From assembly GCA_028712375.1 (NCBI GenBank), contig JAQTQG010000003.1:14619-78618 (forward strand): a stretch of 64,000 bases of DNA. The letters are read 5' to 3'. Below the pieces are notes generated by a model, which saw only the letters and a program-made list of their open reading frames with translations, was not told the origin of the DNA and did not search any database. The number at the start of each line of letters is the position of its first letter. Positions within the stretch are counted from its first letter, which is position 1. This DNA comes from Candidatus Omnitrophota bacterium (lineage in GTDB: Bacteria > Omnitrophota > Gorgyraeia > Gygaellales > Profunditerraquicolaceae). A program made the translations under genes and the position numbers. Positions 3,263 through 19,738 of this stretch are shown here, piece after piece.

Positions 3263-3397
3263 CTATCTTTTTTACTATCTCCCAAAAATGATCTTCGTTT
3301 TCGTTCTTTACTAAATTAGATTTCATTTACTTTTCTCCTTGCTCTATACTTTGTCCTAAACATTGTCTTTTTTACAGTGTAAGATCAAAAAAAATCC

Positions 3398-3913
3398 TTA
3401 CTTGTTCTGGCTGATCAAAGTCACCATCTGTATATTCTCGAAATTCTTTCTACTTTCTATCTCAAGTATTTTATCCGCTTTATCTATCCGGTCATCAATT
3501 TCGTTGCAAATATCCAAATACCGGGTGACATTATCCAAAAGCTGTTGATGATCAGCCTTATGGTCTTCTTTTACAACGCCTAATCGTAGGACCAGATCAG
3601 CATATGACACTTTTCCAGTCGGTATCTCATGACCTTTTAAGACAATAGGAGAATCTATGATCTGTTTTCTTAAATTAAGAAAGTCCTTTATCCTCTTAAG
3701 CGACATCCCTATCATCTTCATAGTAAGGACTTGTTTTATTGTGTCGACTACCTCTCGGCCATATACCCGGTATCTATTCTCCATCTTTTCCGGTGAGAAC
3801 AATCCATAATCCTCGTATTTTCTGAGCTGCTCGCTGGATATATCAAAGCCTTGACGCTGCAACTCTTCGGCTAATTCCGTTCTTAAAAGTCCATCTACTG
3901 GTGATTTATCCAT
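3398..3913 (-). CDS. MerR-family HTH protein, candidate regulator or recombination directionality factor
   Basis: LRKYEDYGLFSPEKMENRYRVYGREVVDTIKQVLTMKMIGMSLKRIKDF resembles the MerR N-terminal HTH. Sits adjacent to the serine integrase. Confidence 0.45.
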   Translation of the reverse strand: MDKSPVDGLLRTELAEELQRQGFDISSEQLRKYEDYGLFSPEKMENRYRVYGREVVDTIKQVLTMKMIGMSLKRIKDFLNLRKQIIDSPIVLKGHEIPTGKVSYADLVLRLGVVKEDHKADHQQLLDNVTRYLDICNEIDDRIDKADKILEIESRKNFENIQMVTLISQNK

Positions 3914-4061
3914 CTGTATCCTTTCCTGACATTAAGACTGTCTTTAAGGCTGTCTTATTATAATCACATCATAGCCTATTTGTCAAGAAATTTCTTTAGT
4001 TATTTTTTGTAGATAAACTGTCTTTTAAAACTCGGCATTTTCTCCGTCTGCGGTAATTAAT

Positions 4062-4370
4062 TTACGTCTTTTTAAGTGGCGTACCATCTGAATCTACCAT
4101 CCTATTTGAAACAATTAGAATTAGATCGATTAACCACCACATGCCAAGACCTCCAAGCGTGCATAATTTCAATATCCCTAACCCTACGTAACCAAGATAG
4201 AATCTATCAAATCCCCAATATCCGAGAAAAAGAGAAAGCAATAACGCCACTAACCAACTTTTACCTTCTTTCTGTAGCCCACTAATTGATCTTCCAGATA
4301 CTGCACAACCGCACTTAACGCAAATAACGGCTTCATTGTCTATCTCTGCACCACATTTTTGACAAAACAT
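4062..4370 (-). CDS. Zinc-ribbon + TM2-domain small membrane protein
   Basis: N-terminal [10 protein letters not shown]…CVKCG zinc ribbon. [35 protein letters not shown] matches the TM2-domain pattern. Confidence 0.55.
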
Positions 4371-4392
4371 TAAAGCCTCCTTTATCTTAAAT

Positions 4393-4764
4393 TTATCTTC
4401 CAGTTATAGAATTAATTATAGTCATAGGATGGACAAACCACAGAATAAGAAGTATTGTGAAAATTGTCCCCATAATTACGCCAAACATAGCCCTACCCAT
4501 TCCGTGTTTTTCAGGGTTTCTCTTAATGTCCCTTATCGCGAGAATACCAAATAGCAAAGCAAACGGAGCTGGAATAAAAAGAATGGAAAAGAAAGCTAAA
4601 TAGCCCGCTGTAATAGCATATCCTGATCTTCCCACTGGCAATAAAGCACGAACAAGGGCATCCTGTCCTGGATCCTTGTTTATTTTTGCTCCTGTAGGAA
4701 CTCCGCACTTCATACAAACAACAGCATCGTCTTTAATTTCTCCACCGCATTTTCTACAAAACAT
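4393..4764 (-). CDS. Zinc-ribbon + DUF4190-like small membrane protein
   Basis: [10 protein letters not shown]…CMKCG ribbon almost identical to the neighbour's. C-terminal Gly-rich TM hairpins ([16 protein letters not shown]). Confidence 0.5.
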
Positions 4765-4835
4765 TTTGCTCCTCCCTTTTATTTCCGAAACCAGGTCTTT
4801 TATTCCTTAGTATTTTAGCTATATGTAGATAGCTC

Positions 4836-5228
4836 TTAATTCTTTCGGACACATTCTGCCTCGACTATATTCCCCCCAGGCATTACTGTGAACATTTTAG
4901 TTCCCGTGGTTCCACAAACAGACGGTGCTGCAATAATCCCATATTCGTTAGGAAATAAATTTACTCCATAGTAGTAGCCATTCACTGTTTTGCTATTGTA
5001 AGCTTCAAAATTAGCGAAATATTGAGTAACCTCATCTCCAGTAGTAGGATATTGCCCCCCGTGGGAAGATGCATAAACCTCAAGCGCTGTAGATATATAC
5101 CTAACCGTTGCTTTTGCAGCAGCTTCATTTTTTGCTATATTATTTCCACAACCCATTACAAAACCCCCAATCAGGACACCCATTAACACAATCCAAACTT
5201 TTCTCATTCTACTCCCTCCTTTTTTCAT
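4836..5228 (-). CDS. Lipoprotein, function unknown
   Basis: Signal peptide with lipobox (LIGGFVMGCGNN), then a soluble domain. Confidence 0.45.
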   Translation of the reverse strand: MKKGGSRMRKVWIVLMGVLIGGFVMGCGNNIAKNEAAAKATVRYISTALEVYASSHGGQYPTTGDEVTQYFANFEAYNSKTVNGYYYGVNLFPNEYGIIAAPSVCGTTGTKMFTVMPGGNIVEAECVRKN

Positions 5229-5279
5229 ATATTATCACCTAATTTAATAGGTGTAAATAGAAAAGACCGACAATAGTAG

Positions 5280-5531
5280 GTGTTCAAAGAGAGGATTTTA
5301 TTGGAAAATGTTAATATGGAAAACATCAATATCAGGTTCGGTAAACATTTGAGGGAATTAAGGAAGGAACGGGAACTGACACAAGAAGAGCTTGCTGAGA
5401 TTTCGGGGCTTGACTATAAATATATCCAACGTCTGGAAGGTAAAAAGCCTTCTTCTCCTACCCTAAATTCATTAGAAAAGATTGCTAAAGCCTTTAATAT
5501 AAGACTCTCAAAATTACTTAAATTTAATTAA
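5280..5531 (+). CDS. XRE-family (Cro/C1-type) HTH transcriptional regulator
   Basis: GKHLRELRKERELTQEELAEISGLDYKYIQRLEGKK is a classic HTH_3. Divergent from the lipoprotein gene. Confidence 0.75.
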   Translation: MFKERILLENVNMENINIRFGKHLRELRKERELTQEELAEISGLDYKYIQRLEGKKPSSPTLNSLEKIAKAFNIRLSKLLKFN

Positions 5532-6193
5532 TACCAACCATCAAGAATACACATTAGAATGCTTAATTCGTTAAGAACGGCCCGAAACTTCTTGTCCTTC
5601 TTGTAGTGCTTGTTATAAGATTCTTCACCTTGGACAACAAGATATTTCTTCTTTTTTGAATCCCAATCGAATTTAATCCTTGTGCCTTCGGCCTTAGTCG
5701 TAACAGTACGGAGTACTCCATCCTTCTTCATTCTCTTAGCATATTCTTCCTCTGGAATGCCGTCTTTACGAGCATGCTTGCCAATAAACTTCTCATGGAT
5801 CTCACGCACATAATCAATCCACTCTTGCTCTTCACTAGGCGGCTTATAACCTTCTGGCAGAATATCACTCATCTTCTTTGCATTACTCACATAACGAGAA
5901 TAAGCCGTAACATCACCAGTGCCGATCCAACGGTCAATGTCACTCTTGCGGAATATGGCTCTACCATCAGCTATACGTGAGAACGGCATCTTTTCCTGAC
6001 GCACCCAACCATCTATAGTCGTTTGTGGCACGCAAAGATATTCTGCTACTTGGACCTTACTTAAATGAATCCTTTTTGTTTTTTTGAATGTTTCGGATTC
6101 TTGGAGGGATTTTTGATCTAAAAACTCACCACAATGACGACACTTAATAGCTTCTTCTTGGATTTCTTCAGCACAAAATGGACATTTCTTCAT
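5528..6193 (-). CDS. Zinc-ribbon + excisionase-family (HTH_17/AlpA-Xis-like) DNA-binding protein
   Basis: N-terminal CPFCAEEI…CRHCG. LSKVQVAEYLCVPQTTIDGWVRQEKMPFSRIADGRAIFRKSDIDRWI matches the excisionase-family HTH. Confidence 0.55.
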   Translation of the reverse strand: MKKCPFCAEEIQEEAIKCRHCGEFLDQKSLQESETFKKTKRIHLSKVQVAEYLCVPQTTIDGWVRQEKMPFSRIADGRAIFRKSDIDRWIGTGDVTAYSRYVSNAKKMSDILPEGYKPPSEEQEWIDYVREIHEKFIGKHARKDGIPEEEYAKRMKKDGVLRTVTTKAEGTRIKFDWDSKKKKYLVVQGEESYNKHYKKDKKFRAVLNELSILMCILDGWY

Positions 6194-6198
6194 ATCAA

Positions 6199-7509
6199 TT
6201 ATTTAGCTAAAGTAAGGCTTTTGAGTGAGTTGGCAAAAAATTCACCAATTATAGATTCTTCATAAGAGATGCTCTCACCTTTAGGTAAGATATAGAGATT
6301 CTTGATTTCATTCATAAGAGAACGGTAATTCTGAACATCAATTGAACTAGAATTAAGATTATCTCTATAGGGGTTAAGTGTTTTCATTTTTTCATTAAGA
6401 TCTTCAATTTTAGAGAAAATTTTATTAATTCTGTTAAAAATTACCTGGTTGGTATAAAACACTTCAAGCTTAATCAACTCTGGCCACATAGCATGCTTAT
6501 TTGCAGTATTAAAATCTTTATAATTCAATAATACCCAATGCGAATCTGCGTATAAATAATTATTTACCCCTATAAAAAGTAGCTGATAGTATTCTTTTAA
6601 ATCCCCATCAAGAGCAGCTAGATAATTACGGGTCACCTTTGCCTCGGGATCTGAATTTATCTTCTTTAAAACAATATCGCCTTTTCGACTCAACTCCTCT
6701 TCTTCGGATTTAATGAATTTTCTAACCTTTTCCTTAGAAATTTCAGTTACATTATCCAATAGCCATTTTGCTACTGTGAGCTTAAAATTTCTTAAACCAC
6801 CATATGAAAGATGCTCTAGGCCATCAATATCAGTAAATTTTTCTACTTCAGGCCGTAGTAAAAGACAAACTTTTATTCCTAATCCATGCATTAAACCATA
6901 CTCATAACTAACACTGTTACTTGCAGAAGATATATCTACAATTCCATATTTACAGGTTTTTATTAATTTGCAAACTTTACAAAGAACAGCTTCAGAGGTT
7001 AATTTATCCTTGGCTATGATTGGAATTAAACCAAACTTAGTTAATATTTCTTTTAAAGCTGATTCGCAATCCTCATATTTTTGATAAGGTATATCTAAAA
7101 AAACGTTATTCTCGTTAAATTCCTGTGTAATTTCATTATTCAAATCACAAGCATCCTTTGCTAAAGGCCCACAGGCATTAATAAAGACTTTTTCCGAATC
7201 CACACTTTTTTGTTTAGGCTTTGTAGCATTCTCCTTGCCACTTTCTTTTTCCAATTTTAACTCTTCTATTGCCATCTGAACTTGACTTTTCATTATGTTG
7301 AATGCTGGTTTCAAAGTATAAGAAGAAAGTGGTAAATTAATTTTGTGGGCATTTTGTATAAAATTATAGTAATATTGTTCATTAAATTTCAACAATGGTG
7401 CAACTTTGTTCGACCAATCAATACATGCTTGCTGAGAAGGAAATCCCTTTTCGACTTCCTCTATATTATAAAGATCTTGTAATTTTTTTAAAATTCCACC
7501 GAAATCCAT
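6199..7509 (-). CDS. Hypothetical protein with central TIR/nucleoside-2-deoxyribosyltransferase-like motif. Candidate effector or sensor of the defence cassette.
   Basis: KVFINACGP…IVDISSASNSVSYEYGLMHGLGIKVCLLL resembles the N…E-G-A-LGKPV pattern of NDT/TIR-like Rossmannoid domains. Otherwise no match I can recognise. 49 nt downstream of the Cas4-like gene. Confidence 0.3.
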   Translation of the reverse strand: MDFGGILKKLQDLYNIEEVEKGFPSQQACIDWSNKVAPLLKFNEQYYYNFIQNAHKINLPLSSYTLKPAFNIMKSQVQMAIEELKLEKESGKENATKPKQKSVDSEKVFINACGPLAKDACDLNNEITQEFNENNVFLDIPYQKYEDCESALKEILTKFGLIPIIAKDKLTSEAVLCKVCKLIKTCKYGIVDISSASNSVSYEYGLMHGLGIKVCLLLRPEVEKFTDIDGLEHLSYGGLRNFKLTVAKWLLDNVTEISKEKVRKFIKSEEEELSRKGDIVLKKINSDPEAKVTRNYLAALDGDLKEYYQLLFIGVNNYLYADSHWVLLNYKDFNTANKHAMWPELIKLEVFYTNQVIFNRINKIFSKIEDLNEKMKTLNPYRDNLNSSSIDVQNYRSLMNEIKNLYILPKGESISYEESIIGEFFANSLKSLTLAK

Positions 7510-7558
7510 CTTTTAATATTTTTAAATATTTGTGGAGTAACCAGCAAGTAAGTTAACA

Positions 7559-8317
7559 TTACCCTACTTTAACTTCTTTCAGTATTTTCTGGTAAATACA
7601 GAAATCACAATCAGCACTATATTCAGGAACTACGGGACCCACCAAGCATTTATACATCTCAATAATCTTAGCCTCAATCCAAGAATCATTTCCGTCATAA
7701 GGTATTATTTTGATATCGAAATCAAGCTTTGCACTAAAGGTATCCCTGTCAGTAAGCCCATTGCAATACACAAAATAACCGGTTGGAGATACATTAAAAC
7801 CGTTTTTTCTGAATAACCACTGGTATATTTCCATCTGCCTCTTATAAGATATCTGCCAATCAGCATCTATGCTTACTTCTTCTTCCTTTGATGTGCTCTT
7901 GTAATCTACGATAAATAGCTGGCCATCCGATGAGGCCCAAACGTCATCTATCCCCCCTGTAAGTAAAAGATTTGTCGGTATGTGCAGATATTCAATACCA
8001 CCATGAAGAGCATCCCGCCAGATATTCAGCTTATCGTGCTTAAAAGGAACCGCCTTGATCCCATTTGCTTCCATAAGAGGATGGCTTATCTGTTTATTCC
8101 GATAGACATCGAATTCTTTCTTCAGTAACTTGTCTACTGCTGAATTTAGTGTAAAAGGGAACCCGGGTGGTTGCCCTACGCCTAATCTTCTGTCTAAATA
8201 GAAGCAACGTGGGCAATTTATGAATAGTTCAATTTTGGAGCGGCTTAGTTTAAATGGAATTTTACTATGCGGATCGAATAAATTCTTAGTTTTTCTACCA
8301 GTATAGTATTTAGACAT
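7559..8317 (-). CDS. Cas4/RecB-like PD-(D/E)xK nuclease with probable Fe-S cysteines
   Basis: GGIDDVW…LFIVDYKSTSK (motifs II/III). YKRQMEIYQW (QxxxY). Cys pairs at both ends (CPRC…CDFC). Confidence 0.6.
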   Translation of the reverse strand: MSKYYTGRKTKNLFDPHSKIPFKLSRSKIELFINCPRCFYLDRRLGVGQPPGFPFTLNSAVDKLLKKEFDVYRNKQISHPLMEANGIKAVPFKHDKLNIWRDALHGGIEYLHIPTNLLLTGGIDDVWASSDGQLFIVDYKSTSKEEEVSIDADWQISYKRQMEIYQWLFRKNGFNVSPTGYFVYCNGLTDRDTFSAKLDFDIKIIPYDGNDSWIEAKIIEMYKCLVGPVVPEYSADCDFCIYQKILKEVKVG

Positions 8318-8461
8318 AGACCTACAGACTATTATTCCCGATTCTTCTTTGGCTATCTGCCGCCGTAGAACTTAAACTAGGCTTGGATTTAGGTTATCTA
8401 TCCATCAGCTTAAAAGCTTCCCGCTTTCAACAATGCTGATGTAGTGAAAAAACTATAAATC

Positions 8462-10351
8462 TTAAGAAATAGTTACAACCGCTTCTGCTTCTGACCAAGT
8501 GTTTATCAAATCCAATATTTTTTGAATTTGAATCGGATAATCTTCTAATGAAAGATCTTCATATTTCATAAAAGCAGCTCCGATCTTGCCATGTTTTTCT
8601 ACTTGATTTGTAGCTATGCCTATAATGTTTTCAAGTTCTGGTGTAATTTTGATGATCTTCCCAATATTTTTATCCAAAGAACCATCAATAAAATCGTTTT
8701 CTTTAAACATTCTGAGCTCAGATTCTTCTTTGTCTGTTTTATTAGGTTTATTTTCTGGAAAGTTAATAGGGTCTATATCATGGATAGCAACGTAAGGAAC
8801 TTTGAACTTATTAAGTACTCGCATAAATATATGTATATTGGTTTTTCCGCCACATTCAACTACGCATATGTTTTTAGCAACGAAGTCATATTTTTTATCT
8901 TTTACAGTAAATTTTGTTGCCCAGAAAGGAACTATAAATTTTTCGGTATCACCTTCAACCAATACTACTTTCTTAGAGAAAAACATTTCACTACGCGATA
9001 AGTCAAAAAGGCTTAAATAACGGAAAACTTTTTTTAACCTATTGTTTTCCTGTGTGGTTTCAGCAGCAAATATATCTCCAACAAATTGAAAGGTATTTGT
9101 TGGACCTTTTTCCTCACGCCCAACGATCACGATATTCTTGTATTCAAACATATCTACAAAAAAGTTAGAATGTGTACAGGCCAATATTTGATCAGTAGTT
9201 GCGATATTCCTTAAAACTTCAATCATCTTTCTTTGGCCATTAGGATGTAAATATAGTTCTGGTTCCTCAATTGCAAGTATAAAATTTTTCACCAAGGCTT
9301 CCGGTTGATCTTCTTCTACAATTACAGTACTTACTGTTTTAGCATAAGCTCTTATATAAGCTAAAATTAGTGCACGTTGAAGACCATGTCCCTTAGAATC
9401 AATCGAAGTAGGCAAAGCGTCATCTAAAGTAATATTCACATCTTTAAATAAATCAACAAGTTCGGGAGTGACGATTTCAATACCAACCTTTGTTCCTGGC
9501 ATACTTTCGCTTATTATGCCTGTAATAGTGCTTTCGAAATCTTTTATTTCCTGTAATCGGTCTGAGTCATCTCCAGTACCTGATTTATTTAAATATTTCT
9601 TCAACCCTTCGAGCTGGTTCTTAACCTCTTCAAATTTTGGATTCTTTAAAACTATCCTATTTGTTAAATCGGTTACTAACTTCCCTAATACAGTTTGCTG
9701 TGTAGTCTTAGATTCATCACATGCATCTTTTACAGCAGGAACCAAATAAAATTTAGGCAACAAATCAGCAAATACTTCTTTGAGGCCTGCAGGATTCTTT
9801 ATCCAATCTGGATCACCAAATTCCACTTTTCCGTCCTCTATACACTTCATAACCCCTTCTTTATATGAAGCCTGGGTCACGGTTCCCTTATCAGTTTTAA
9901 AATAGTCTGGTAAATTTTTATCTTTCACAATTTTTGCAATATCCCCTTTATATTCATCAAATCTTGATAGATCAAAATGGAGCTCGCGAGGCTTAGCTTG
10001 CCATCCATAAAACGTCGTTTCATATTTTTCACTCTGATTATTATACTCTACGACCTTTTTCACTCGAATTGCATGGTCATAGATCCAATGCTTAAGATAC
10101 TTTTGTTTTTCATCATACTCAGTTAATCTATCAAATGTCAAAATAATAGTGATTGGTTCATTATTCTTTTTGAAATAAAAATATTCCTCGTTTATCCCCT
10201 TAACCGAATCTTGATAGAATAATTCTATTGCTCGAAGTATATTGGATTTACCTGCATTATTCTCTCCAATAAACATAGCCAATGAATCTATTTCAATTTC
10301 TATGCTGTCTATGGACTTAAATTTGTGTATTTCGACTTTACGTAACTTCAT
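8462..10351 (-). CDS. OLD-family nuclease: N-terminal ABC/AAA_15-type ATPase fused to a C-terminal Toprim domain
   Basis: KLRKVEIHKFKSI…FIGENNAGKSNILRAIELF (Walker A). C-terminal VVLVEGDTEKFIVPFW … VAIHDIDP (Toprim E and DxD). 629 aa. Confidence 0.75.
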   Translation of the reverse strand: MKLRKVEIHKFKSIDSIEIEIDSLAMFIGENNAGKSNILRAIELFYQDSVKGINEEYFYFKKNNEPITIILTFDRLTEYDEKQKYLKHWIYDHAIRVKKVVEYNNQSEKYETTFYGWQAKPRELHFDLSRFDEYKGDIAKIVKDKNLPDYFKTDKGTVTQASYKEGVMKCIEDGKVEFGDPDWIKNPAGLKEVFADLLPKFYLVPAVKDACDESKTTQQTVLGKLVTDLTNRIVLKNPKFEEVKNQLEGLKKYLNKSGTGDDSDRLQEIKDFESTITGIISESMPGTKVGIEIVTPELVDLFKDVNITLDDALPTSIDSKGHGLQRALILAYIRAYAKTVSTVIVEEDQPEALVKNFILAIEEPELYLHPNGQRKMIEVLRNIATTDQILACTHSNFFVDMFEYKNIVIVGREEKGPTNTFQFVGDIFAAETTQENNRLKKVFRYLSLFDLSRSEMFFSKKVVLVEGDTEKFIVPFWATKFTVKDKKYDFVAKNICVVECGGKTNIHIFMRVLNKFKVPYVAIHDIDPINFPENKPNKTDKEESELRMFKENDFIDGSLDKNIGKIIKITPELENIIGIATNQVEKHGKIGAAFMKYEDLSLEDYPIQIQKILDLINTWSEAEAVVTIS

Positions 10352-10708
10352 GGTGTTATTATACCTCTTTTTATTACCCCTAACAATAATTTCAAGTTTT
10401 TCACTGAGAGCTTATCTGCATGCCTCAAGCCACAATCATACCTTAGAAACCGATAAAACTTCATAATCTGCTTAGTTTCTTCTATTAACTTCCTATGCCT
10501 TATGTTCCATAGCCGAGTAATCGGACTGATCATCTTTACCACCTCCTGCTATCAATAGACGCAGAAAGTGGAAAAATCTAACAGGATTTTTAGAATTTAA
10601 CTTCGTTTTTTACTTAATTTTGGGCAGGATTTATATATGGAATTTCTCTATGAACTTCGCTTTTGGTATAAATTACGAAGCTATATTATTGAAACCTGAA
10701 ATTTGCTT

Positions 10709-12220
10709 CTATTCTGGAGCTCCCATAATAAAACCTGTGGTAAGCCCTTTTTCTTTAAACCAACTTTTTAATATGCCCTTACTTCCAGCAATTGCCGTAT
10801 CAATTTCTGAATCCGTTGGGGCACTCCACATTTGCCAGTTAAATAATCTTGCTAAACATGCTTTTATTTTTGAGTAGTCGCTATCCACTAAATCCCTATA
10901 AAATGGCTTAGCTTTCTCATCTCCATCATGAATATCTAATTTCGCACATATTGCGTCTCGCAATAGTTCTGACCAGGCCATAATTGATTTTGAAGAAAAT
11001 ATCCTACTGAGTTTACGCTGATTTTGATCACTAGGCGCGGCTGCAGGATTCCAATGTGAAAGCGCAAGTTCAAAAATCATATTCATTAAAGCAATAACAT
11101 TCTTAAACTCTGATTCTCTCCTATATTTTTCTGAAAACATATCATCATCAAGAGGCTCGGTATAAAGAAAACAAGCAAGGATTGACTTAGAGAGCATATC
11201 CACAGTAAGCGGTTGTTCATTGGAGCTCCTATTACTTGTTGAAACGAGTGGTTTGAGTTTATTAGACTCATCTTCAAGAATAGAATTATATAAGTAACTA
11301 CGGAAACGCTTGTTTCGCTCGCCCCGCGTAAGAGATATGTCTTTCTGCTCTAGAAATGACAAAAAACCACTTTCATTTTTTTTCTCAATATCTTCTCTAT
11401 TTTTATACTCTTCAAAATCTTTCCCAAATTGATTCCCTAATTTAAGAATTAATACTGACGAAAAAAATCTTGTTTGGGCGAATTTATCATGTGCTGATAT
11501 ATTAGCTTGATTAAGCATCCTCAAGTCGGGATCAAGATAGATCTTGCATTCAAATGTCTTTCTCCCATTCCACAATATCGCAGCTGCCTTGTGTTGACCA
11601 TCAAAAAGCAATATCCTATTATTTGAAACACGTCCTATTGAAGGTTGCAAAACTGGATAAATCTGGAAATGACGAAACATTTCAAATACTTTATCAAAAA
11701 TCAAATAACGTGGTTGTAGGCCCAAATGTTCATTATCATCATCATCGCTGTTAAGAATTGATATGGGTAAATTACCATAAAAATATTTCCAACCGGTTCG
11801 CGGACAGGTTTGGATATTAAACTGAGATGAAAAGGAGTGGTGTTGTAAAGTAACTGTTTTATCTTGGACATTAATAGCAACCGCTTCTCCAAAAGACTCA
11901 ATATCACCTGCCTTTTTTAAGTGCGTAATTAGATTACGCAATGTTAATCTATCGCCTTCTTCAAAAAATGATTCAAGTCGAAGTTTTATACGAAAATCCC
12001 CTAGAGGCAACATTCCCTTCGCCTTATTATGGTATTCGCACATAGGTGCAATATTATCAAGTTCTGATTGCCCATCTCGAGCATAAGCCCAAATATGGTC
12101 AAAATGAACCCTCTCCCCTTCCGGGATTGCATGCCCATTGGCAAAGCAAATACGCCCATGTCGATTTAAAATTATTTTCTTTTCATCATCATTGATTTGC
12201 CTTTTTAGAGTAATTGCCAT
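10709..12220 (-). CDS. Fusion protein: N-terminal HNH nuclease motif + C-terminal DGQH(R/K) ParB/DndB-like domain
   Basis: HFDHIWAYARDGQSELDNIAPMCEYHNKAKG (HNH). NRILLFDGQHKAAAIL (DGQHR-type motif). Confidence 0.6.
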   Translation of the reverse strand: MAITLKRQINDDEKKIILNRHGRICFANGHAIPEGERVHFDHIWAYARDGQSELDNIAPMCEYHNKAKGMLPLGDFRIKLRLESFFEEGDRLTLRNLITHLKKAGDIESFGEAVAINVQDKTVTLQHHSFSSQFNIQTCPRTGWKYFYGNLPISILNSDDDDNEHLGLQPRYLIFDKVFEMFRHFQIYPVLQPSIGRVSNNRILLFDGQHKAAAILWNGRKTFECKIYLDPDLRMLNQANISAHDKFAQTRFFSSVLILKLGNQFGKDFEEYKNREDIEKKNESGFLSFLEQKDISLTRGERNKRFRSYLYNSILEDESNKLKPLVSTSNRSSNEQPLTVDMLSKSILACFLYTEPLDDDMFSEKYRRESEFKNVIALMNMIFELALSHWNPAAAPSDQNQRKLSRIFSSKSIMAWSELLRDAICAKLDIHDGDEKAKPFYRDLVDSDYSKIKACLARLFNWQMWSAPTDSEIDTAIAGSKGILKSWFKEKGLTTGFIMGAPE

Positions 12221-12288
12221 GTGCTACCTCCATCTATTCTATTAGCTTAAAATCAAAATGTGTTTTTGGTAAAAAATTCTATCTATAC

Positions 12289-12501
12289 TCAATGATGCTC
12301 TCTTTCGTATAGAGTGTGCAGTATCTTATATAATCTTTTGCCGTTTGTAACTTGTCCATCACTATTAACAGATACAATCAAATCCTTAGTTGCTAGCCTT
12401 ATCCCGTCATCACCATATTTGAACATTCTTACAACATCACTTAAATAGATAGCAAATCTACCTTTGGGACTTTGAATAATCTTACCTTTTGCACCAGGCA
12501 T
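12289..12501 (-). CDS. Small hypothetical protein (70 aa) upstream of the HNH-DGQH gene
   Basis: ORF only. Same strand, compact spacing. Confidence 0.3.
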   Translation of the reverse strand: MPGAKGKIIQSPKGRFAIYLSDVVRMFKYGDDGIRLATKDLIVSVNSDGQVTNGKRLYKILHTLYEREHH

Positions 12502-12553
12502 ATTATCCTCCTCTGGATTAAATCAAAGATGGAACCGACACGTATTGTTATAA

Positions 12554-12886
12554 TTAAGCATATTTCTCTTTGTGCATTTCATAATACAAATCAAATATTT
12601 TCTTTGCAATCTTAGAACCTGTGCTATTTTTAATAATACTCATGGTATTCTCTACTGAACCTATCCAAACTTCTCCTTTATGATTTAAAACGGGTCCATG
12701 TTTTGTTAATTGCCTCACAACCCATTCCCAGTCTTTTTGAAATTCCTCAGGAAAATCTTTTGGTTCTAAAACATGGCAGATTAAATATGATCCAATGAGC
12801 CTTGACCTTACGTCTTTTTGACCAACAGCTAAAGCATAAACAACTTCAAATAATTTCTCTTGTACATAAGAATAACTTTTTCTCAT
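12554..12886 (-). CDS. Hypothetical protein (110 aa), first gene of the minus-strand block
   Basis: ORF only. Confidence 0.3.
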   Translation of the reverse strand: MRKSYSYVQEKLFEVVYALAVGQKDVRSRLIGSYLICHVLEPKDFPEEFQKDWEWVVRQLTKHGPVLNHKGEVWIGSVENTMSIIKNSTGSKIAKKIFDLYYEMHKEKYA

Positions 12887-13139
12887 AATAAATATCTATA
12901 AGCAAAAAAACAACCCTATTTTAGAGAGTTGCCTTAGATTTGACCTAGTTTAACCTCATTACCGCTCCTATTTAAATATAAGTTATTATCCTACCCCCAT
13001 AGCCCAAAATCAACCCTTTTTTAACTGTTCTAGGATAATAAATGTTAAATGAATTTAGTATTCTACACAAATTTCGAAGTAGTAATACTGGACGCAGCAT
13101 CTTAAAAGGTATATAATATTTTTAACAAAGGAAAACACA

Positions 13140-13988
13140 ATGAAGTTTGCCGATGTAAATAAGACCATAATAAAGCTGTGCAAAGATAACAGTTTGGATT
13201 TCTTAGCTGAATGCGAAGCTATCCAATCTGAAGTTGATGCCTGCTCTCTACCTGAAATTCTCGACCATTTAGATAATGCAGGTATCATACCCGAATGTTT
13301 TGATCACGATTCTACGGAAGAAAAGTTGTTCGCAAAGTATTGTGACTCTTTATTAGCTCGTGGGTTACGAGAAATAGGATTAAACGCATATACAATACCA
13401 GAACGCAGTGATGCGGCTGATGTTCAAGGGAAGGGTAGCAATTACACTATTGTTGGAGATGCTAAAGCGTTTCGTCTTAGCAGAACAGCAAAAAACCAAA
13501 AAGATTTTAAGGTCGAGGCTCTTGATAAATGGAGAAATGGATCCGATTTCGCTGTATTAGTAAGCCCTCTTTACCAGTACCCAAATACAAATAGCCAGAT
13601 TTACTCACAAGCAATAAGGTATAATGTTACCCTATTATCTTATACCCACCTAGCTTTCCTAATAAGAAATAGAAATAATATAAAGAATGGCTCTCTTAGG
13701 GGATTATGGGAAATCGGAAAAAAGCTCTCTATTGGTAAAAGCGCCAAATCATACTGGGGATTAATTGACGCTAAAATGCTAGAAATTACCGGGAAGGATA
13801 AAAAGGATTGGGATAGCGCTATAGAAACAGAATACAAATGCTTAGTTCAGAGAGCTAAGGACGAGATTAAGTATTGGGAAGATGAAAAAGCAAAGATATT
13901 AAAATTGTCTCACGATGCGGCAATACAAGAACTAATTAAGGCTAGGAAAATAACAGAAAAGGTCGGAGTTATTAAGCAGTTTATATAG
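13140..13988 (+). CDS. Putative PD-(D/E)xK restriction endonuclease (convergent partner of the methyltransferase)
   Basis: SDAADVQGKGSNYTIVGDAKAF fits a D…(D/E)xK arrangement. The stop is 8 nt from the methylase stop. Confidence 0.35.
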   Translation: MKFADVNKTIIKLCKDNSLDFLAECEAIQSEVDACSLPEILDHLDNAGIIPECFDHDSTEEKLFAKYCDSLLARGLREIGLNAYTIPERSDAADVQGKGSNYTIVGDAKAFRLSRTAKNQKDFKVEALDKWRNGSDFAVLVSPLYQYPNTNSQIYSQAIRYNVTLLSYTHLAFLIRNRNNIKNGSLRGLWEIGKKLSIGKSAKSYWGLIDAKMLEITGKDKKDWDSAIETEYKCLVQRAKDEIKYWEDEKAKILKLSHDAAIQELIKARKITEKVGVIKQFI

Positions 13989-13995
13989 CGTTGAT

Positions 13996-16200
13996 TTAAA
14001 GAGATTTTCTTTTTGTGATTTTGAAGCCTGAATAGAGTGTTGAGATGTAGTCTGAAATACTCATAATCATATCTGCATCACATCCACCCCCAGTGATGTT
14101 CTTATAGTTGACCAGTAACCCAATTCCCTGTGCGAATATTGCCAACCCAATGTCTTTCTCGCTCCATCCCGCTTCTTTCAACACATTACCATAATCAGAT
14201 ACGTAAGAAGATACCTTAGCAATTATTTCGGGGAAAGATATTGATGATTTCTCTTCCATTGTTTTATGACAGACGAAGGTAATGCAAGTATCTATTGCTT
14301 CTGATGTCATGCCGCGAGGTCTTGCTTTTCTTTCTATACTAAGTGGTTGCACGCTTGTGATTATAAAATTAGTGTCTCTAAACGCCCGAATAATTGCGTC
14401 CCATCCGCCTAGTGAGCTATGGCTATAAATAAACGATAGGACGCCGTCATATTTCAAAACTCTCTCAGCTTCTTTTATCGCCTTGCCTAATTCTAAGCAA
14501 TACTTATCGTGAGCTTCAAGGGCCGATTGACTACGAAATGCTGAAGCAACTAATTCGGAACCAAAGCTAGTGTCTTGTTTGTTAAATAAATCCGGATCAA
14601 CATTTTTTAATAAAATTCTTTTCCACGCATAAAAGAAATCCGCTAATATGCTGTAATAAATATTATCATAGTATGGGGGATCTGTTATAATTGCATCAAA
14701 ATAATTGCTCTTAAATGGGAGGTTTTGGGCAATTCCACAGTTTACTTCCGGTTTATATGGAAATTTTTCGATGGAGCTAATGCCTGAAATGATACGGTCG
14801 AGCTTATCCCAAAGATTAGCTGGGCCATTCATTATGGGGTCTATTTCGCCATAATCCCAAAGCATGGGAACGCCTGGACCGCAAAAAGCTCGCCCCATCT
14901 GTTCATTTTGCGAAATCCACATAGATAAACGACAATTCCAATCCACAAGTTGATCAATTAAACTCGCCAATACAGAAATAGCAAAATCCGCCAACTCCTT
15001 TGAATTCTGCTCCTTCAATAACCGATATTCATCTTTCAGACACTTTATCAAAGACAGTAGAACCACCCTCTGCCTTTTATTGACAAAATCACTATGAGTT
15101 TCTATGCCGTAAACTGAGGGGTTCACAATGCCGGACCATTTGGGCAATTTCGTATTTGGAAGACTGCTTTCTAAAGATTTTAATAAATCATTTTCAAGAT
15201 GAGAGATCTTAACGGCTGAGGGAATCAGCAAATCGTTGTTTTCTATAAGCAAAAACTCTTTCCCGGATTTTTCTTTCCGCTTAACAAAAGCAATTAGCTC
15301 ATCTCGAGTGTTGCTAATATCAACTTTTTCAACTATATGAGAGCATTTTGGGCATTTAGCAGACCCATTTCGACCTTCCCAATTTGAGTTATGTTCATAT
15401 TTGTCATCCACTTCCTTAATCCCAATATGCTGTCGATCCTTGGAATTATTTATAATAATTGCTATTCGCTTATTTTTCTTGCGTGACAGCCAGGGTCTTT
15501 TTATTAAATAATATACATATTTACATTTTGGGCATTTTAATGAATACGTCCAGAAATACACTACAGGTGGTCTTTGTTTCGTCTCGGATATCTCACCCTG
15601 CTTACTTCTTGATACCCCTCCCTTCCTCAATGGAAACAATTCATTTGTTGCTTCTTCTAAAGACTTTAAAACACGAATGCCAGATTTCCTTACAATATCT
15701 TCGGCACTTCTTAAATCAACTTTCTGCGAGTATTCAAGATTTGCTTTTTGTATAAAAACAGACAATTCATTCGCATCAATAGAGTATGCTTTGGCACCTA
15801 TGTTGGCTATTTCTAATGGTATTGTTCCTCCACCACCAAACATATCTAGGGCCTTTGGAGGAACTACGTATTGTTCTTTAATAATAGCTCGGGCTTTATC
15901 TATGGCACTTTTGTTTGCATCCCCCGCTAACTCAACCATTATTTCATACATTTTAGGTGTACTTATTTTACATAGAGAAGCAAACGCAAGTATCCTCATA
16001 GCAGAATGAGGTCTTCGAGCCCACCAAACGTGGAGTGTATGCGACGTTTCTCCACTTCGGTATCGTTCCGCAAGACCAGCTATTGAGGCTTCGTAATGTA
16101 AAAGTCCACTATCTATCAAACGATGTTCCGAAGTGTTTGGGATCAGAGCAATTTCAGGACTTGATTGGGTTTTATTTTGACACATACTACTTATTGGCAT
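13996..16200 (-). CDS. DUF1156/COG1743-type adenine-specific DNA methyltransferase with zinc ribbon
   Basis: LHVWWARRPHSAMRILAFASL (DUF1156). LDMFGGGGTIPLE (motif I). CPKCKYVYY…CPKCSH (Zn ribbon). IITDPPYYDNIYY (motif IV DPPY). Confidence 0.75.
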   Translation of the reverse strand: MPISSMCQNKTQSSPEIALIPNTSEHRLIDSGLLHYEASIAGLAERYRSGETSHTLHVWWARRPHSAMRILAFASLCKISTPKMYEIMVELAGDANKSAIDKARAIIKEQYVVPPKALDMFGGGGTIPLEIANIGAKAYSIDANELSVFIQKANLEYSQKVDLRSAEDIVRKSGIRVLKSLEEATNELFPLRKGGVSRSKQGEISETKQRPPVVYFWTYSLKCPKCKYVYYLIKRPWLSRKKNKRIAIIINNSKDRQHIGIKEVDDKYEHNSNWEGRNGSAKCPKCSHIVEKVDISNTRDELIAFVKRKEKSGKEFLLIENNDLLIPSAVKISHLENDLLKSLESSLPNTKLPKWSGIVNPSVYGIETHSDFVNKRQRVVLLSLIKCLKDEYRLLKEQNSKELADFAISVLASLIDQLVDWNCRLSMWISQNEQMGRAFCGPGVPMLWDYGEIDPIMNGPANLWDKLDRIISGISSIEKFPYKPEVNCGIAQNLPFKSNYFDAIITDPPYYDNIYYSILADFFYAWKRILLKNVDPDLFNKQDTSFGSELVASAFRSQSALEAHDKYCLELGKAIKEAERVLKYDGVLSFIYSHSSLGGWDAIIRAFRDTNFIITSVQPLSIERKARPRGMTSEAIDTCITFVCHKTMEEKSSISFPEIIAKVSSYVSDYGNVLKEAGWSEKDIGLAIFAQGIGLLVNYKNITGGGCDADMIMSISDYISTLYSGFKITKRKSL

Positions 16201-16463
16201 TTTACAGATAGGCCTTTGCCACGACTTATTTCAAGCACATAGCATTTTTCATTAAGGGGGATCTTACGGGTATATCGCCAACCAAATGAAATACGTCTAT
16301 ATTTCCAATCGATTCTTTTTTTACCTAAATCTTGTCCTTCAAAATTAACCAAAATTTCATCAGCATCATTTAACAACTTTTTAATATCTGGATCTCGCTT
16401 TTGTTTCCATATTATGTATCCCCATTTCCTAGCACGGTTCAAAATTGGTATAGTAAAGGCCAT
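16191..16463 (-). CDS. Small hypothetical protein overlapping the methylase start
   Basis: ORF only. 10-nt overlap suggests translational coupling. Confidence 0.3.
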   Translation of the reverse strand: MAFTIPILNRARKWGYIIWKQKRDPDIKKLLNDADEILVNFEGQDLGKKRIDWKYRRISFGWRYTRKIPLNEKCYVLEISRGKGLSVKCQ

Positions 16464-16519
16464 TGTCTACCTCCTTTTTATTTAGTCTATTGTAAAACGA
16501 TGGAAGAGTCAAGCTTGGT

Positions 16520-17134
16520 TTAAACACTAAGTAGCTCGGCACACTCCGCCAGATCTTCCTTCGTTACGCCCGTGTAGATCTGCGTCGTAGAAACGAACTT
16601 GTGTCCCAAAAACTCCTGCACCTTCCGGATGTTGCCACACTTTCGCATTAACTCCGTCCCAACCGTGTGCCTCAGACAGTGTGGTGAATATCTTCCTTCC
16701 AAGCCACTTTCACTAACCCATTTATTAAGGTTTAACTGCACTGCCCTCTGGGTAATTCTTTTGTTGTTCCTTGATAAAAATAAGGGTTCGCTCAAGGAGA
16801 AGCCTTCATCCTTTGCCTTTCTCTGCCTAATGTATTTATCTATGTGGGCTCTAATATCCTTGTTTAATGGTATTTGCCTAATCCTGTCGCCCTTGCCTTT
16901 TATCTCCAACACTTCCTTTGACGAATAGCCGTTGTGCACATCCTTGGCATTAAGGTTGATCGTTTCACTAAGGCGTAATCCAGTATTAAGCATAAGGTCA
17001 AACATACAATAATCACGCCAGGCTTTCCTGCTGTCGGCAAGTGTCTTTAAGAATTGTTTCTTTTGTTCAGAAGTCAGATATCTTATCGTGTTCCTCTTGG
17101 CCATTTCACACCTCTTCGTTAATATACTGCTCAA
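16520..17134 (-). CDS. Tyrosine recombinase, catalytic domain only (no N-terminal core-binding domain). Minimal recombinase or remnant.
   Basis: LRLSE (Arg I). HCLRHT (HxxR). STTQIYTGV (catalytic Tyr). Only 204 aa. Confidence 0.6.
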   Translation of the reverse strand: MSSILTKRCEMAKRNTIRYLTSEQKKQFLKTLADSRKAWRDYCMFDLMLNTGLRLSETINLNAKDVHNGYSSKEVLEIKGKGDRIRQIPLNKDIRAHIDKYIRQRKAKDEGFSLSEPLFLSRNNKRITQRAVQLNLNKWVSESGLEGRYSPHCLRHTVGTELMRKCGNIRKVQEFLGHKFVSTTQIYTGVTKEDLAECAELLSV

Positions 17135-17540
17135 CCTTAACCCTTACCTTTTCTTTTAATACCTGAAACTCTTCTGAGAACTCGCCATTATCACTAAAAT
17201 CTCTGTCTTTCCATAAATTGTCATACGCCTGGCAGAGAAAATATTGGTATTCTTTATTTTGCGGGGACATCTCAATAGCCTTAAGGATAATTTCAGTGCC
17301 TGTCCTTAAAGAAGTAACCCAGAAAGTTGTAAGCAGAATATATGATTGTTCGTAAAGAAGCTCTGCTCTCTGTTCTTTTGAGAGGCCGTAATTCTGCAAT
17401 AATTTATAGACCCTATCAAGCCTCTCAGATTTTTGTGTATCTCCATCAGGTTCTTGAGCAAAGAGATTAACTAAAAATAATAACGACATCGAAACTATTA
17501 AAATAACTATTATCTGTTTTGTATTCATTTTCACCTCCAA
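17106..17540 (-). CDS. Secreted or periplasmic hypothetical protein
   Basis: Signal peptide (IVILIVSMSLLFLVNLFAQ). Confidence 0.35.
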   Translation of the reverse strand: MEVKMNTKQIIVILIVSMSLLFLVNLFAQEPDGDTQKSERLDRVYKLLQNYGLSKEQRAELLYEQSYILLTTFWVTSLRTGTEIILKAIEMSPQNKEYQYFLCQAYDNLWKDRDFSDNGEFSEEFQVLKEKVRVKVEQYINEEV

Positions 17541-17576
17541 TATCTTTTTTCCTATATATGGCCTGACCCTGGCTTC

Positions 17577-19037
17577 CTATGAATTAGCAAAAAAACCTAT
17601 CTTGGTTTTATTGTCCTTAACAAAGATTCCGTCCTGTTCTAGACTCGCTCCAAACAAAAGGTCATTCATTGTAATAATATTCCTTTTCTCTTGAACCAGC
17701 CGTCGCAGGGCGTGGAAGACAGCATTCTTGATGTAGCCACCACTAAACTGAAATTGTCTGGCCAGAACAGCAAAATCAACACCTTGGGCAAGAGTTACCT
17801 TGCTTGGAATATGCGATCGCCAAATTTCTTTGCGTATCTTCTCATCAGGCAAATCAAATTTAACCTTTAAAGTAACTCTGCGTTCAAGTGCAGGATCAAG
17901 CAAATTATCCATGTTCGAAGTTAAGATTACCACTCCTTCAAACCGTTCAATTTCCTGTAGCATAATATTAACAAACCTAATATCGTGTTCTTGGGCTGCG
18001 AAGTTGCGGTTATATAAAATAGAATCCGCCTCGTCAATACAGATAACAACATTATTTTGCTTTGCTGACTTAAAAATAGAAGATATTTGTTTATCGGTTT
18101 CACCAAACCAACGTGAATTTATTTTGGGAAATTCAACAACAAGCAACTTCTTCTTAAGATGTTTTGCTATTGCCTCAGATAACATCGATTTTCCCGTGCC
18201 GGGCGGACCGTAAAAGAGGAAAACCAATCCTTTGCCATTTTTAATTGTTTCTTCTACACCAAGATCTTCAAGTCCTTTATCCTGCAACCCGGATAATAAG
18301 AAACTGACGTTTTTCTTCACATCGAGAGATAGCTTAACATCTTCAAGAGAATATGCCGGATCCTTTAAAAAACCAACCTCTTCGCAAGGGTGTAAATCTT
18401 TTTTATTTTCTGCCCTTCCAGGTCTAGATTCTTTATACTCCCCACTTATCATCCTAGAAAAAACGTCCAACAAAGACGAACTCATCCCGAAACTGACTAC
18501 GGCCGAGTTGTGGTTGTTTCGATAATATGGGTACAAAATAGAATATTTTAAAAGATTGGCATTTCGGTTAAAATAACGAGACAACCCCATTCTCCCGATT
18601 ACAGAATCATTTAAGTCAAAGATCCTAAGGAGCAGATCCCTTGAACAGATATTCTCTTTTAGGTGCAAGAACTCCAAATAAAGGTAATATAGGAGTATTT
18701 GCTTTTCAAAGATATCCAAACCGTATAGCGAGGCAGTTTTTTCTAACGCAAACTTACTGCCCTTAGACATGGAATCCTGTACCCTTTGCCAAAACAAAAC
18801 TTCTTTTGTCTTTATTGTTGAGTCCAATTCTGATACATTCTTGCGGAATGCCTCTACATCATCCTTAGATTTCTTAATAAGAATAATTCTTTTGTTTTGG
18901 TAAAGTTCGCAGATCTTGAAATATTCTTCGATGTATTCTTGGTCACCTGAAAGAAAATTATTTTCCGGCATTACCTTTTCTCCTTTCTTTCTGCACAAAC
19001 TTATCAAAATCCTCAACTGTCTTTTTGAGCCTTTCAT
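17577..19037 (-). CDS. AAA+ ATPase (classical AAA clade) with ~250-aa N-terminal domain of unknown function
   Basis: LFYGPPGTGKSMLSEAIAKHL (Walker A). VVICIDEADSIL (Walker B). SRH-like TSNMDNLLDPALERR. Confidence 0.7.
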   Translation of the reverse strand: MKGSKRQLRILISLCRKKGEKVMPENNFLSGDQEYIEEYFKICELYQNKRIILIKKSKDDVEAFRKNVSELDSTIKTKEVLFWQRVQDSMSKGSKFALEKTASLYGLDIFEKQILLYYLYLEFLHLKENICSRDLLLRIFDLNDSVIGRMGLSRYFNRNANLLKYSILYPYYRNNHNSAVVSFGMSSSLLDVFSRMISGEYKESRPGRAENKKDLHPCEEVGFLKDPAYSLEDVKLSLDVKKNVSFLLSGLQDKGLEDLGVEETIKNGKGLVFLFYGPPGTGKSMLSEAIAKHLKKKLLVVEFPKINSRWFGETDKQISSIFKSAKQNNVVICIDEADSILYNRNFAAQEHDIRFVNIMLQEIERFEGVVILTSNMDNLLDPALERRVTLKVKFDLPDEKIRKEIWRSHIPSKVTLAQGVDFAVLARQFQFSGGYIKNAVFHALRRLVQEKRNIITMNDLLFGASLEQDGIFVKDNKTKIGFFANS

Positions 19038-19632: not shown

Positions 19633-19738
19633 AAAAATGCCGAAATGAATAAGAATTCTTTGATTTCAATCTTAAATTGGTTGACCAATTTTGCCTTTTA
19701 TATAAACCAAAAATAACACGCAGAAATAATCAACTTTA

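Follow-up and report, generated by a model that had tools for sequence, protein, structure and literature searches.

The locus and the domains of its 503-aa protein

The window (the whole 64,000-nucleotide stretch analyzed here) encodes a 503-aa protein on its minus strand (Table 1); an identical (100%) protein is on record at NCBI as a hypothetical protein from a Candidatus Omnitrophica MAG. The gene stands on a low-GC island that carries an integrase, and is flanked by a HindIII-type restriction-modification (R-M) pair on one side and an OLD nuclease on the other. As the original prediction stated, the N-terminal part contains HFDHIW (aa 39-44) and NIAPMCEYHN (aa 56-65), and three small ORFs lie nearby on the same strand. 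The predicted DGQHR-type motif also exists, as DGQHK within LLFDGQHKAAAIL (aa 204-216), but it is central rather than C-terminal, the ParB-like domain around it being followed by a helical domain of ~270 residues.

Table 1. Coordinates of the 503-aa protein gene, its parts and the neighboring small ORFs
Feature	Position in window	Strand	Source
Gene for HNH + ParB/Srx-like + helical-domain protein, 503 aa	10709..12220 (incl. stop codon)	-	ORF list; 100% NCBI match
GGAGG ribosome-binding site; spacing to the ATG 6 nt	12227..12231	-	Read from sequence
HNH (beta-beta-alpha-metal) nuclease domain, aa ~10-72	12005..12193	-	
Catalytic D41-H42 of HNH (predicted)	12095-12100	-	
Catalytic N56 of HNH (predicted)	12053-12055	-	
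Catalytic H64-N65 of HNH (predicted)	12026-12031	-	
Two-helix linker, aa 73-112	11885..12004	-	AF2 secondary structure, pLDDT 88-91
ParB/sulfiredoxin-fold domain, aa ~113-230, with LQPR (168-171), VLQPSIGR (190-197) and DGQHK	11531..11884	-	
DGQHK motif, aa 207-211	11588..11602	-	Residue conservation, secondary structure, alignment register
All-alpha, family-specific C-terminal domain, aa 231-503, with invariant E283, R368, E371 and W465	10712..11530	-	
Small ORF, 110 aa	12554-12886	-	
Small ORF, 70 aa	12289-12501	-	
Small ORF, 64 aa	10348-10542	-	

Judged by residue conservation, the HNH and DGQHK motifs are not chance occurrences. C25, H30, D41, H42, N56, C61, H64, N65 and D207-G208-Q209-H210-K211 are all invariant in 28 relatives with 60-84% identity; in 55 diverse relatives (19-60% identity) N56, Q209 and H210 are still invariant, and conservation of C25, D41, H42, N65, D207, G208 and K211 stays at or above 90%. 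The ~430 residues outside the HNH domain are likewise under strong purifying selection in both sets. The HNH profile PF01844 scored 19.1 bits against the 503-aa protein alone, just below the gathering score of 21.4, and matched 48 of the 55 diverse relatives with E-values of 0.01 or lower, down to 1.3e-11. The family profile in turn matched HNH domains in the PDB at 2e-12 to 1e-6, the catalytic and Cys/His residues aligned to those of the Gme HNH domain (4h9d), and fold comparison gave a beta-beta-alpha-metal fold. The N-terminal domain is thus, by profile, PDB sequences and fold, a classical HNH nuclease domain, with C25, H30, C61 and H64 as probable Zn ligands; the nearest types are those of group II intron maturases, IscB and Cas9.

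Fold comparison of the predicted structure (whole-chain pTM just 0.49) assigns aa ~113-230 to the ParB/sulfiredoxin (Srx) fold; sequence profiles support the assignment weakly. In the AF2 secondary structure DGQHK sits at a strand-to-helix junction (E202-207/H209-217), where weak hhalign matches (E 0.12-0.47) align it in register with GERR of ParB Box II and GCHR of Srx. QPR is the likely Box I equivalent, and DGQHK probably takes the place of GERR as Box II. A lysine would then replace the canonical Box II arginine in this family, so that NTP binding is not guaranteed. The pentapeptide is identical to DGQHR at four of five positions and conservative at the last, which is lysine in at least 90% of the 55 diverse relatives.

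The original prediction had linked the DGQH region to ParB and DndB. The fold bears out the ParB-superfamily connection, but no profile score was significant, which counts in part against that prediction. PF02195 matched neither the 503-aa protein nor any of the 28 close (E≤1) or 55 diverse relatives (E≤0.01). The DndB profile TIGR03187 gave 13.3 bits (E=0.05) against a cut-off of 58.85. Sub-threshold matches to it recurred in the relatives: 8 of the 28 close ones had E<1 (lowest 0.0067), and 1 of the 55 diverse ones had a match. PF14072 was absent from both sets of relatives, as was DUF262, which did not match the 503-aa protein either; DUF1524 matched neither this protein nor the 55 diverse relatives.

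The helical domain had no PDB neighbor, and no GmrSD-type enzyme was among its best 60 matches; it probably serves in DNA or target recognition, or in oligomerization. An exhaustive search with an HMM of the C-terminal two-thirds of the protein returned 339 clusters at 50% identity. In nearly every full-length match an N-terminus of ~130-170 residues precedes the matched region, and in longer relatives the HNH domain still lies ahead of the ParB-like/helical region. The family as a whole numbers more than 865 clusters of ~503-aa proteins, and is a real, widespread single-gene module in which an HNH domain, a ParB/sulfiredoxin-type domain and an unfamiliar helical domain occur in fixed order.

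Relation to known systems

GmrSD, BrxU, SspE and DndI resemble the 503-aa protein in that a single chain holds both a His-Me finger nuclease and a ParB-superfamily domain with a DGQx(R/K) loop. They are stand-alone defense genes, often near R-M, BREX or Dnd loci, whose nicking or cleavage activity is regulated by NTPase activity (PMC4619093, PMC11662687, PMC12065111). In DndI, ATPase activity and defense require R87 of the DGQQR motif, and the HNH domain nicks DNA (PMC11662687). These enzymes differ in having an N-terminal DUF262 domain with DGQQR and a C-terminal DUF1524 domain, whereas here DGQHK follows an N-terminal PF01844-type nuclease; nor does the 503-aa protein share the helical domain that follows the ParB-like domain in DUF262-DUF1524 enzymes (PMC12065111). 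We accordingly rejected the initial reading of the protein as a GmrSD with swapped domain order, since neither DUF262 nor DUF1524 matches it and its helical domain had no GmrSD-type enzyme among the best 60 matches.

In DndB/DGQHR proteins (TIGR03187, PF14072) and DpdB, too, a helical region comes after a ParB-superfamily domain that bears a DGQH(R/K) loop, but DndB has no nuclease domain and is an ATP-modulated regulator (PMC4507180; PMC10853773). Membership of this family was also rejected, given the TIGR03187 score, the absence of PF14072 and the lack of dnd or dpd neighbors. Since the 503-aa protein belongs neither to DndB/DGQHR nor to DUF262-DUF1524, it represents the same two superfamilies fused independently.

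Similar in domain content are bacterial fusions of a PF02195 ParB-CTPase fold to a PF01844 HNH domain, described as novel and uncharacterized by Kaljevic et al. 2025 (PMC12704722). Inclusion in that survey depended on a PF02195 match at the gathering threshold, and the 503-aa family, which falls below it, almost certainly lay outside the survey's scope. McrA and the SRA-HNH enzymes TagI/ScoMcrA are modification-dependent nucleases with a separate sensor. The 503-aa protein differs in having no SRA, EVE or SBD base-flipping reader; its sensor would be the ParB-like, NTP-type domain plus the unfamiliar helical domain, and its HNH domain is N-terminal. None of the PADLOC defense-system HMMs matched the protein, and no named system with an HNH-ParB-helical architecture was found in PADLOC or in the literature searched, in line with the original expectation that the architecture is uncatalogued.

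Gene neighborhoods and mobility

The neighborhood survey covered 91 fetched loci, 74 of them non-redundant. The commonest neighbor family occurred in at most 11 of the 91, and there was no conserved neighbor, nor a conserved adjacent immunity or antitoxin gene, across the 74. About 10 of the 74 have Type I or Type I-like R-M genes directly adjoining the family gene. Immediately 5' lies hsdR in L021, L034, L035 and L052, with gaps of 3-15 nt, and also in L077; immediately 3' lies hsdM in L014, L016, L034, L035 and L052; the gaps of 3-15 nt to R-M genes in several loci suggest co-transcription. PrrC in EcoprrI is a defense gene embedded in a Type I R-M operon. The arrangement here is similar, with the family gene right after hsdR in five loci and hsdM next in three of them (L034, L035, L052), but PrrC is an unrelated protein, and only this minority of family loci adjoin such R-M genes. 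Elsewhere the family gene adjoins TIR, ApeA-HEPN, AbiC, SduA, AbiU2 and PIN toxin-antitoxin genes. Some neighbors have metabolic or housekeeping functions, for instance thrS and operons of the xanthine-dehydrogenase family (in L024 and L030 the family gene separates the genes for the Mo and FAD subunits in such an operon), and most loci are not obvious defense islands. As originally noted, no dndCDE or sspBCD genes lie nearby; the window as a whole holds no dnd, ssp or dpd genes, and in the 25 Pfam families most often represented among the 128 immediate neighbors from 73 loci, neither these nor other DNA-sulfur modification genes appeared. The OLD family was also absent from these 25.

The family architecture occurs in at least 418 of 185,579 species genomes (~0.2%), in many phyla and independently of phylogeny. 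Its distribution is patchy and crosses phyla at 50-84% identity, a pattern that fits horizontal transfer under strong purifying selection. No match was found in 72,556 plasmid or 50,697 phage records. In locus L008, a homologue with 78% identity is the sole ORF of a cassette between canonical attC sites (GCCTAAC...GTTAGGC); attC sites are imperfect palindromes of the form R'' RYYYAAC ... R' GTTRRRY that bracket an ORF. Repeat-bracketed cassettes also hold the gene in L006, L017, L048 and L001, so that it forms a single-ORF cassette between attC-like repeats in at least five loci. Searches of the homologous loci revealed neither conserved DNA on the gene's flanks nor terminal inverted repeats. 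The window copy itself does not lie in such a cassette: intergenic repeats are absent, the stretch from 5 to 17 kb of the window holds no attC-like pair, and folding of the downstream spacer gave z=-0.9. We conclude that the family gene probably spreads horizontally on its own, as an integron-type cassette, an insert in Type I R-M operons or defense-island cargo, the window copy being cargo of a low-GC integrative element.

This bears on the earlier suggestion that the block from 12886 to 6199 is one operon, in which the small ORFs partner the 503-aa protein. It is highly improbable that the protein is one subunit of an operon reaching from 12886 to ~6199 with the small ORFs, OLD and a Cas4-like nuclease, even though the genes of the block are all on the minus strand with short gaps (52, 68 and 166 nt), and the only intrinsic terminator-like site in the scanned stretch (12907-12935) lies upstream of the block rather than within it. 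When proteins of the block were compared with ~90 homologous loci by tblastn, neither the small ORFs nor the Cas4-like nuclease had a match; the single exception was a weak OLD-like match in L091 (30% over 56 aa, ~1.4 kb upstream of the family gene). The family of the 110-aa ORF occurs elsewhere without an HNH-ParB gene, and the L008 cassette boundaries enclose the 503-aa-family ORF only. With an AGGAGG site of its own and an end that runs into the start codon of OLD (ATGA), the 64-aa ORF belongs with OLD, to which it is translationally coupled, and not with the 503-aa gene. The small ORFs thus lose their proposed role as partners, and the 503-aa gene is not part of the neighboring OLD operon.

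Possible function and its significance

We infer nuclease activity, NTP gating, a defense role and whatever target specificity the protein may have, and on balance we favor the view that it is a self-sufficient, NTP-gated HNH defense nuclease acting against incoming DNA. The N-terminal HNH domain would be the effector that nicks or cuts DNA, using the D-H general-base pair, the structural Asn and the H-N metal ligand pair. The ParB/sulfiredoxin domain most likely binds an NTP and serves as the on/off switch; ParB-fold domains bind CTP, ATP or GTP (PMC12704722). By analogy with ParB and DUF262 enzymes, switching might occur by nucleotide-controlled dimerization or conformational change, with the helical domain contributing DNA/target recognition or oligomerization, and the mode of action would resemble that of a Type IV or nucleotide-gated restriction enzyme. 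A fuller version of this scheme is possible but more tentative: a new single-gene restriction/defense family in which the ParB switch licenses the HNH domain (e.g., by NTP-driven dimerization or clamp closure on DNA that pairs two HNH domains), the new helical fold picks the target, and spread is mainly as an integron cassette and Type I R-M insert.

It is unlikely that the protein is instead a sensor-effector that needs a host DNA-modification module encoded elsewhere (SspE/DndI-like, phosphorothioation) or a guard of Type I R-M, and that is inert or toxic alone. DGQH does resemble the DndB/DGQHR signature (PMC4619093), SspE and DndI are ParB-like plus His-Me enzymes tuned by host modification, and the R-M-adjoining loci, several with very short gaps, would suit a guard. 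Against this, dnd, ssp and dpd genes are missing from the window and the immediate neighbors surveyed, most loci have no R-M neighbor, the integron cassette form moves alone, and membership of the DndB and DUF262 profiles failed. A slightly less probable reading is that the nuclease gene is selfish and mobile, acting like a homing endonuclease or as an addiction module, and is kept by mobility or post-segregational damage and not by host benefit. A lone gene whose copies in different phyla share 50-84% identity, inserted within operons (between hsdR and hsdM, or between Mo and FAD subunit genes) and with an HNH domain nearest those of intron maturases, IscB and Cas9, might be expected of such an element; however, there is no intron or intein context, no conserved flank or terminal repeat and no conserved immunity or antitoxin partner, phage and plasmid records lack the family, attC-mediated cassette capture accounts for the mobility, and the strong selection on the non-HNH residues also argues against it. 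A housekeeping role in DNA metabolism (repair, segregation, or DndB-like transcriptional regulation with an HNH domain) seems very doubtful: the ParB fold does include segregation factors and regulators, and some neighbors are housekeeping genes, but the family's presence in so few species genomes, irrespective of phylogeny and without conserved synteny, and its occurrence in cassette arrays and defense/toxin-antitoxin islands are contrary to it.

If the family is active as a defense nuclease, it would be a second, independently evolved design in which a ParB-like NTP switch controls a His-Me nuclease, a design so far characterized only in the DUF262-DUF1524 enzymes (GmrSD, BrxU, SspE, DndI). 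Comparing the two solutions would then reveal which features of switch-nuclease coupling are essential. An active family would likewise broaden the roles of the ParB fold outside segregation, adding one that the recent ParB survey could not reach because PF02195 does not detect so divergent a sequence. Integron cassettes are known to harbor phage-defense genes (Kieffer 2025, Darracq 2025, as cited in bioRxiv 10.64898/2026.03.17.712381), and a compact (1.5 kb), autonomous, cross-phylum cassette would join them, with its C-terminal helical domain as a candidate new DNA-recognition fold.

Sequence conservation and domain composition of the 503-aa protein

The 503-aa ORF and the three small ORFs of the original prediction were all present in the ORF list as described, and translation of the former contains each of the quoted strings HFDHIW, NIAPMCEYHN, and LLFDGQHKAAAIL. 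The gene has a GGAGG ribosome-binding site 6 nt 5' of its ATG, and an identical protein is already on record as a hypothetical protein from a Candidatus Omnitrophica MAG. Residues C25, H30, D41, H42, N56, C61, H64, N65, and D207-K211 are invariant in 28 relatives with 60-84% identity. In 55 relatives with 19-60% identity, N56, D159, Q209, H210, E283, R368, E371, and W465 are invariant, and C25, D41, H42, N65, P170, R171, R197, F206, D207, G208, and K211 are at least 90% conserved. As judged by these alignments, the motifs are strongly conserved.

By profile comparison, the family clearly belongs to HNH. The window protein itself scores 19.1 bits with Pfam HNH, just below the 21.4-bit threshold; 48 of the 55 relatives match this profile at E ≤ 0.01 (best 1.3e-11), and PHROG HNH families are matched with E down to 2e-7. 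Searching the family profile against PDB sequences returned HNH domains only—those of group II intron maturase (2e-12), Cas9 (1.5e-9), Gme HNH (3.5e-9), and McrA—with no match to the C-terminal 360 residues.

The DGQHK motif (residues 207-211) had been read as a DGQHR-type ParB/DndB-like motif. Membership of DndB/DGQHR fails: TIGR03187 (DndB/DGQHR) gives 13.3 bits, far under its cut-off of 58.85, and the PF14072, PF02195, and DUF262 profiles match neither the window protein nor its relatives. Pairwise hhalign comparisons used human Srx and B. subtilis ParB sequences identical to PDB 1yzs (residues 17-137) and 6sdk (residues 21-185), respectively. DGQHK aligned on GGCHR of Srx, and LQPR, VLQPSIGR, and DGQH aligned on YQPR, ILQPLIVR, and AGER of ParB. 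Both registers are sensible, but the E values against these single sequences (0.12 and 0.47) are non-significant. When the C-terminal two-thirds of the protein was used as an HMM query in an exhaustive search of 1.84 billion representatives, only 339 clusters were found at E ≤ 1e-3, and nearly all full-length matches were 480-550 aa long, with the matched region beginning at residue 130-170. The profile thus does not reach the large DndB and DUF262 families.

In longer relatives the HNH domain still lies upstream of the C-terminal region; two of these (P0179 and P0248; 631 and 728 aa) are extended at the N terminus, ahead of the HNH domain, by a further 180-250 unannotated residues. Five relatives of ~350-386 aa (P0138, P0190, P0214, P0215, P0267) consist of the ParB-like and helical region without any HNH, and may represent either fragments or a stand-alone form.

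Genomic setting of the window copy

GC content is 0.32-0.39 over ~2-20 kb of the window, versus ~0.43 elsewhere. Together with this low GC, the neighboring genes—defense genes, an HTH regulator, an integrase, AAA+ and Rep_O-like proteins, and a short ComM—point to an integrative element carrying defense cargo; the block from 5280 to 22298 looks like such an element. comM is a known insertion site for islands. No tRNA gene was found in 1-30 kb, Rfam models found nothing over 5-17 kb, and a promoter and terminator scan stayed at background level.

Features of the window and of homologous loci in which the gene lies in an integron-like cassette array
Feature	Location	Coordinates	Strand	Remarks
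Cro/CI-type HTH protein	window	5280-5531	plus	
436-aa protein and 221-aa Zn-ribbon/HTH protein	window	5528-7509	minus	second gene 5 nt on
Cas4-like PD-(D/E)XK protein	window	7559-8317	minus	144 nt after OLD
OLD-family ATPase-TOPRIM nuclease	window	8462-10351	minus	
61-64-aa ORF	window	within 10348-10542	minus	before OLD
503-aa protein	window	10709-12220	minus	
70-aa ORF	window	12289-12501	minus	
110-aa ORF	window	12554-12886	minus	
HindIII-family restriction endonuclease	window	13140-13988	plus	
DUF1156-type N6/N4 methyltransferase, 734 aa	window	13996-16200	minus	adjoins HindIII-type endonuclease
Xer-like tyrosine recombinase (integrase)	window	16520-17134	minus	
Overlapping ORF	window	17106-17540		may be N-terminal part of the recombinase (possible frameshift)
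AAA+/winged-helix protein	window	17577-19037	minus	
Rep_O-like protein	window	20403-20831	minus	
ComM/Mg-chelatase	window	20955-22298	plus	abuts low-GC block; N-terminally short, ChlI domain only partly present
Cassette array	L008	6770-12290		
Cassette array	L006 (Leptospira sanjuanensis)	740-19230		
Cassette array	L017 (Turneriella)			
Cassette array	L048 (Ferruginibacter)			
Cassette array	L001	9774-11707		

The 734-aa methyltransferase matches PADLOC MTase_II at 4e-197, as well as the HmaB and MAD2 models. In Gabija, the partner of the OLD-type nuclease is a UvrD-like helicase (GajB); here OLD is followed instead by the Cas4-like protein, which may represent an unusual OLD partnership. The 436-aa protein has only faint similarity to TIR/CAP12 and PADLOC PDC-S35, and the 221-aa protein, with its Zn-ribbon and excisionase/MerR-type HTH, resembles MADS MAD1; this gene pair is a possible two-gene defense unit.

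Homologous loci and integron-like cassettes

The family is real, widespread, and uncharacterized, with 418 hits among 185,579 species genomes from many phyla. Loci were fetched from species-representative genomes (80) and metagenomes (11), and subjected to ORF calling and all-against-all clustering. The most frequent neighbor family occurs in only 11 of the 91 loci, and in 74 non-redundant loci the genes adjoining the homologue come from many unrelated families. The proposal that the small ORFs and OLD form an operon with the 503-aa gene or act as its partners is not supported: no small ORF, OLD, Cas4-like gene, or 436-aa protein recurs beside homologues, the sole exception being one weak, distant OLD-like match. 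Nor does the 64-aa ORF look like a partner, having its own AGGAGG-N8-ATG and a stop codon that overlaps the OLD start codon (ATGA). The 110-aa ORF represents a real small family (26 homologues, no Pfam) that is found elsewhere without the 503-aa gene; in L092, L094, and L095 it follows Type III restriction-modification (R-M) genes or is one of a series of small unannotated ORFs on a single strand. The 70-aa ORF is preceded by a strong ribosome-binding site, and no relative of it was detectable in the loci fetched.

The recurrent neighbors are Type I R-M genes. hsdR is directly upstream in L021, L034, L035, and L052 (gaps of 3-15 nt) and in L077, and hsdM directly downstream in L014, L016, L034, L035, and L052, so that in L034, L035, and L052 the gene sits between the two. 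In L014, L016, L001, and L042 the gene is directly beside hsdM/hsdS. This embedding in Type I R-M operons recalls other defense genes nested in such loci. A different setting is seen in two Pyrinomonadaceae loci (L024 and L030, 5513-10574), where, in a xanthine-dehydrogenase/CO-dehydrogenase-family operon, the gene separates the molybdopterin-subunit gene from the FAD-subunit gene. Between these loci the gene is 81% identical and the two subunits are 83% and 77% identical; it has been inherited together with them. In the Chloroflexota loci L064 and L065, an operon distantly related to this one, and belonging to the same family, lies just upstream of the gene.

A comparison of the DNA around 69-71 homologues showed neither conserved flanks nor terminal inverted repeats, and because only local synteny was seen, a transposon-like or ncRNA-associated element was rejected; tblastn against plasmid and phage collections likewise gave no match. 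In five loci, the homologue belongs to a same-strand, integron-like array in which intergenic repeats flank it and occur between every gene or gene pair. L008 carries the closest homologue on a long contig (78% identity), and its repeats are canonical attC sites (GCCTAAC...GTTAGGC). In L006, ~19 repeats of 150-190 nt separate toxin-antitoxin and defense cassettes (AbiC, SduA, AbiU2, PIN, HigB, RelB, HNH); the ends of these repeats are RYYYAAC-like and GTTRRRY-like, L'' pairs with L', and the repeats fold significantly (z = -3.9). In L008 one cassette is taken up by the 503-aa ORF alone, which is direct evidence that the gene is a self-contained unit.

No attC-like sites surround the window copy, and an integron array spanning 12886-5528 was considered and rejected. 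An attC scan by duplex energy recovered the known arrays and elsewhere gave about chance density (267 hits in 959 kb); it is no measure of how common cassettes are among the other loci. No integron integrase was seen within the fetched flanks of the cassette arrays. The integrase in the window resembles Xer rather than IntI, and the L008 recombinase is without a PDB relative, so that no integron integrase was identified.

Relation to known systems and proposed mechanism

The protein had been viewed as a fusion whose domain order is inverted relative to GmrSD-type enzymes. In GmrSD, BrxU, SspE, and DndI, a DUF262 domain with DGQQR comes first and DUF1524 last (PMC4619093, PMC11662687, PMC12065111). 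Both domains of the 503-aa protein belong to different families from these, which makes it an independent fusion rather than an inversion. PADLOC matched neither the protein nor the small ORFs, and full-text literature searches found no description of the HNH-ParB-like-helical architecture. A 2025 survey of ParB folds reports ParB-HNH fusions as novel; it admitted only proteins with PF02195 at the gathering threshold, below which the present family falls (PMC12704722).

In the proposed mechanism, the HNH domain would act as effector and the ParB-like domain as a nucleotide switch, by analogy with CTP-dependent N-engagement in ParB, with SspE and DndI, in which the DUF262 NTPase controls DUF1524 nicking (PMC11662687), and with the diverse ParB folds now shown to bind ATP, GTP, and CTP (PMC12704722). 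The helical domain may serve in target recognition or assembly. The family is best filed under the ParB-like NTPase plus His-Me nuclease class of single-gene defense enzymes.
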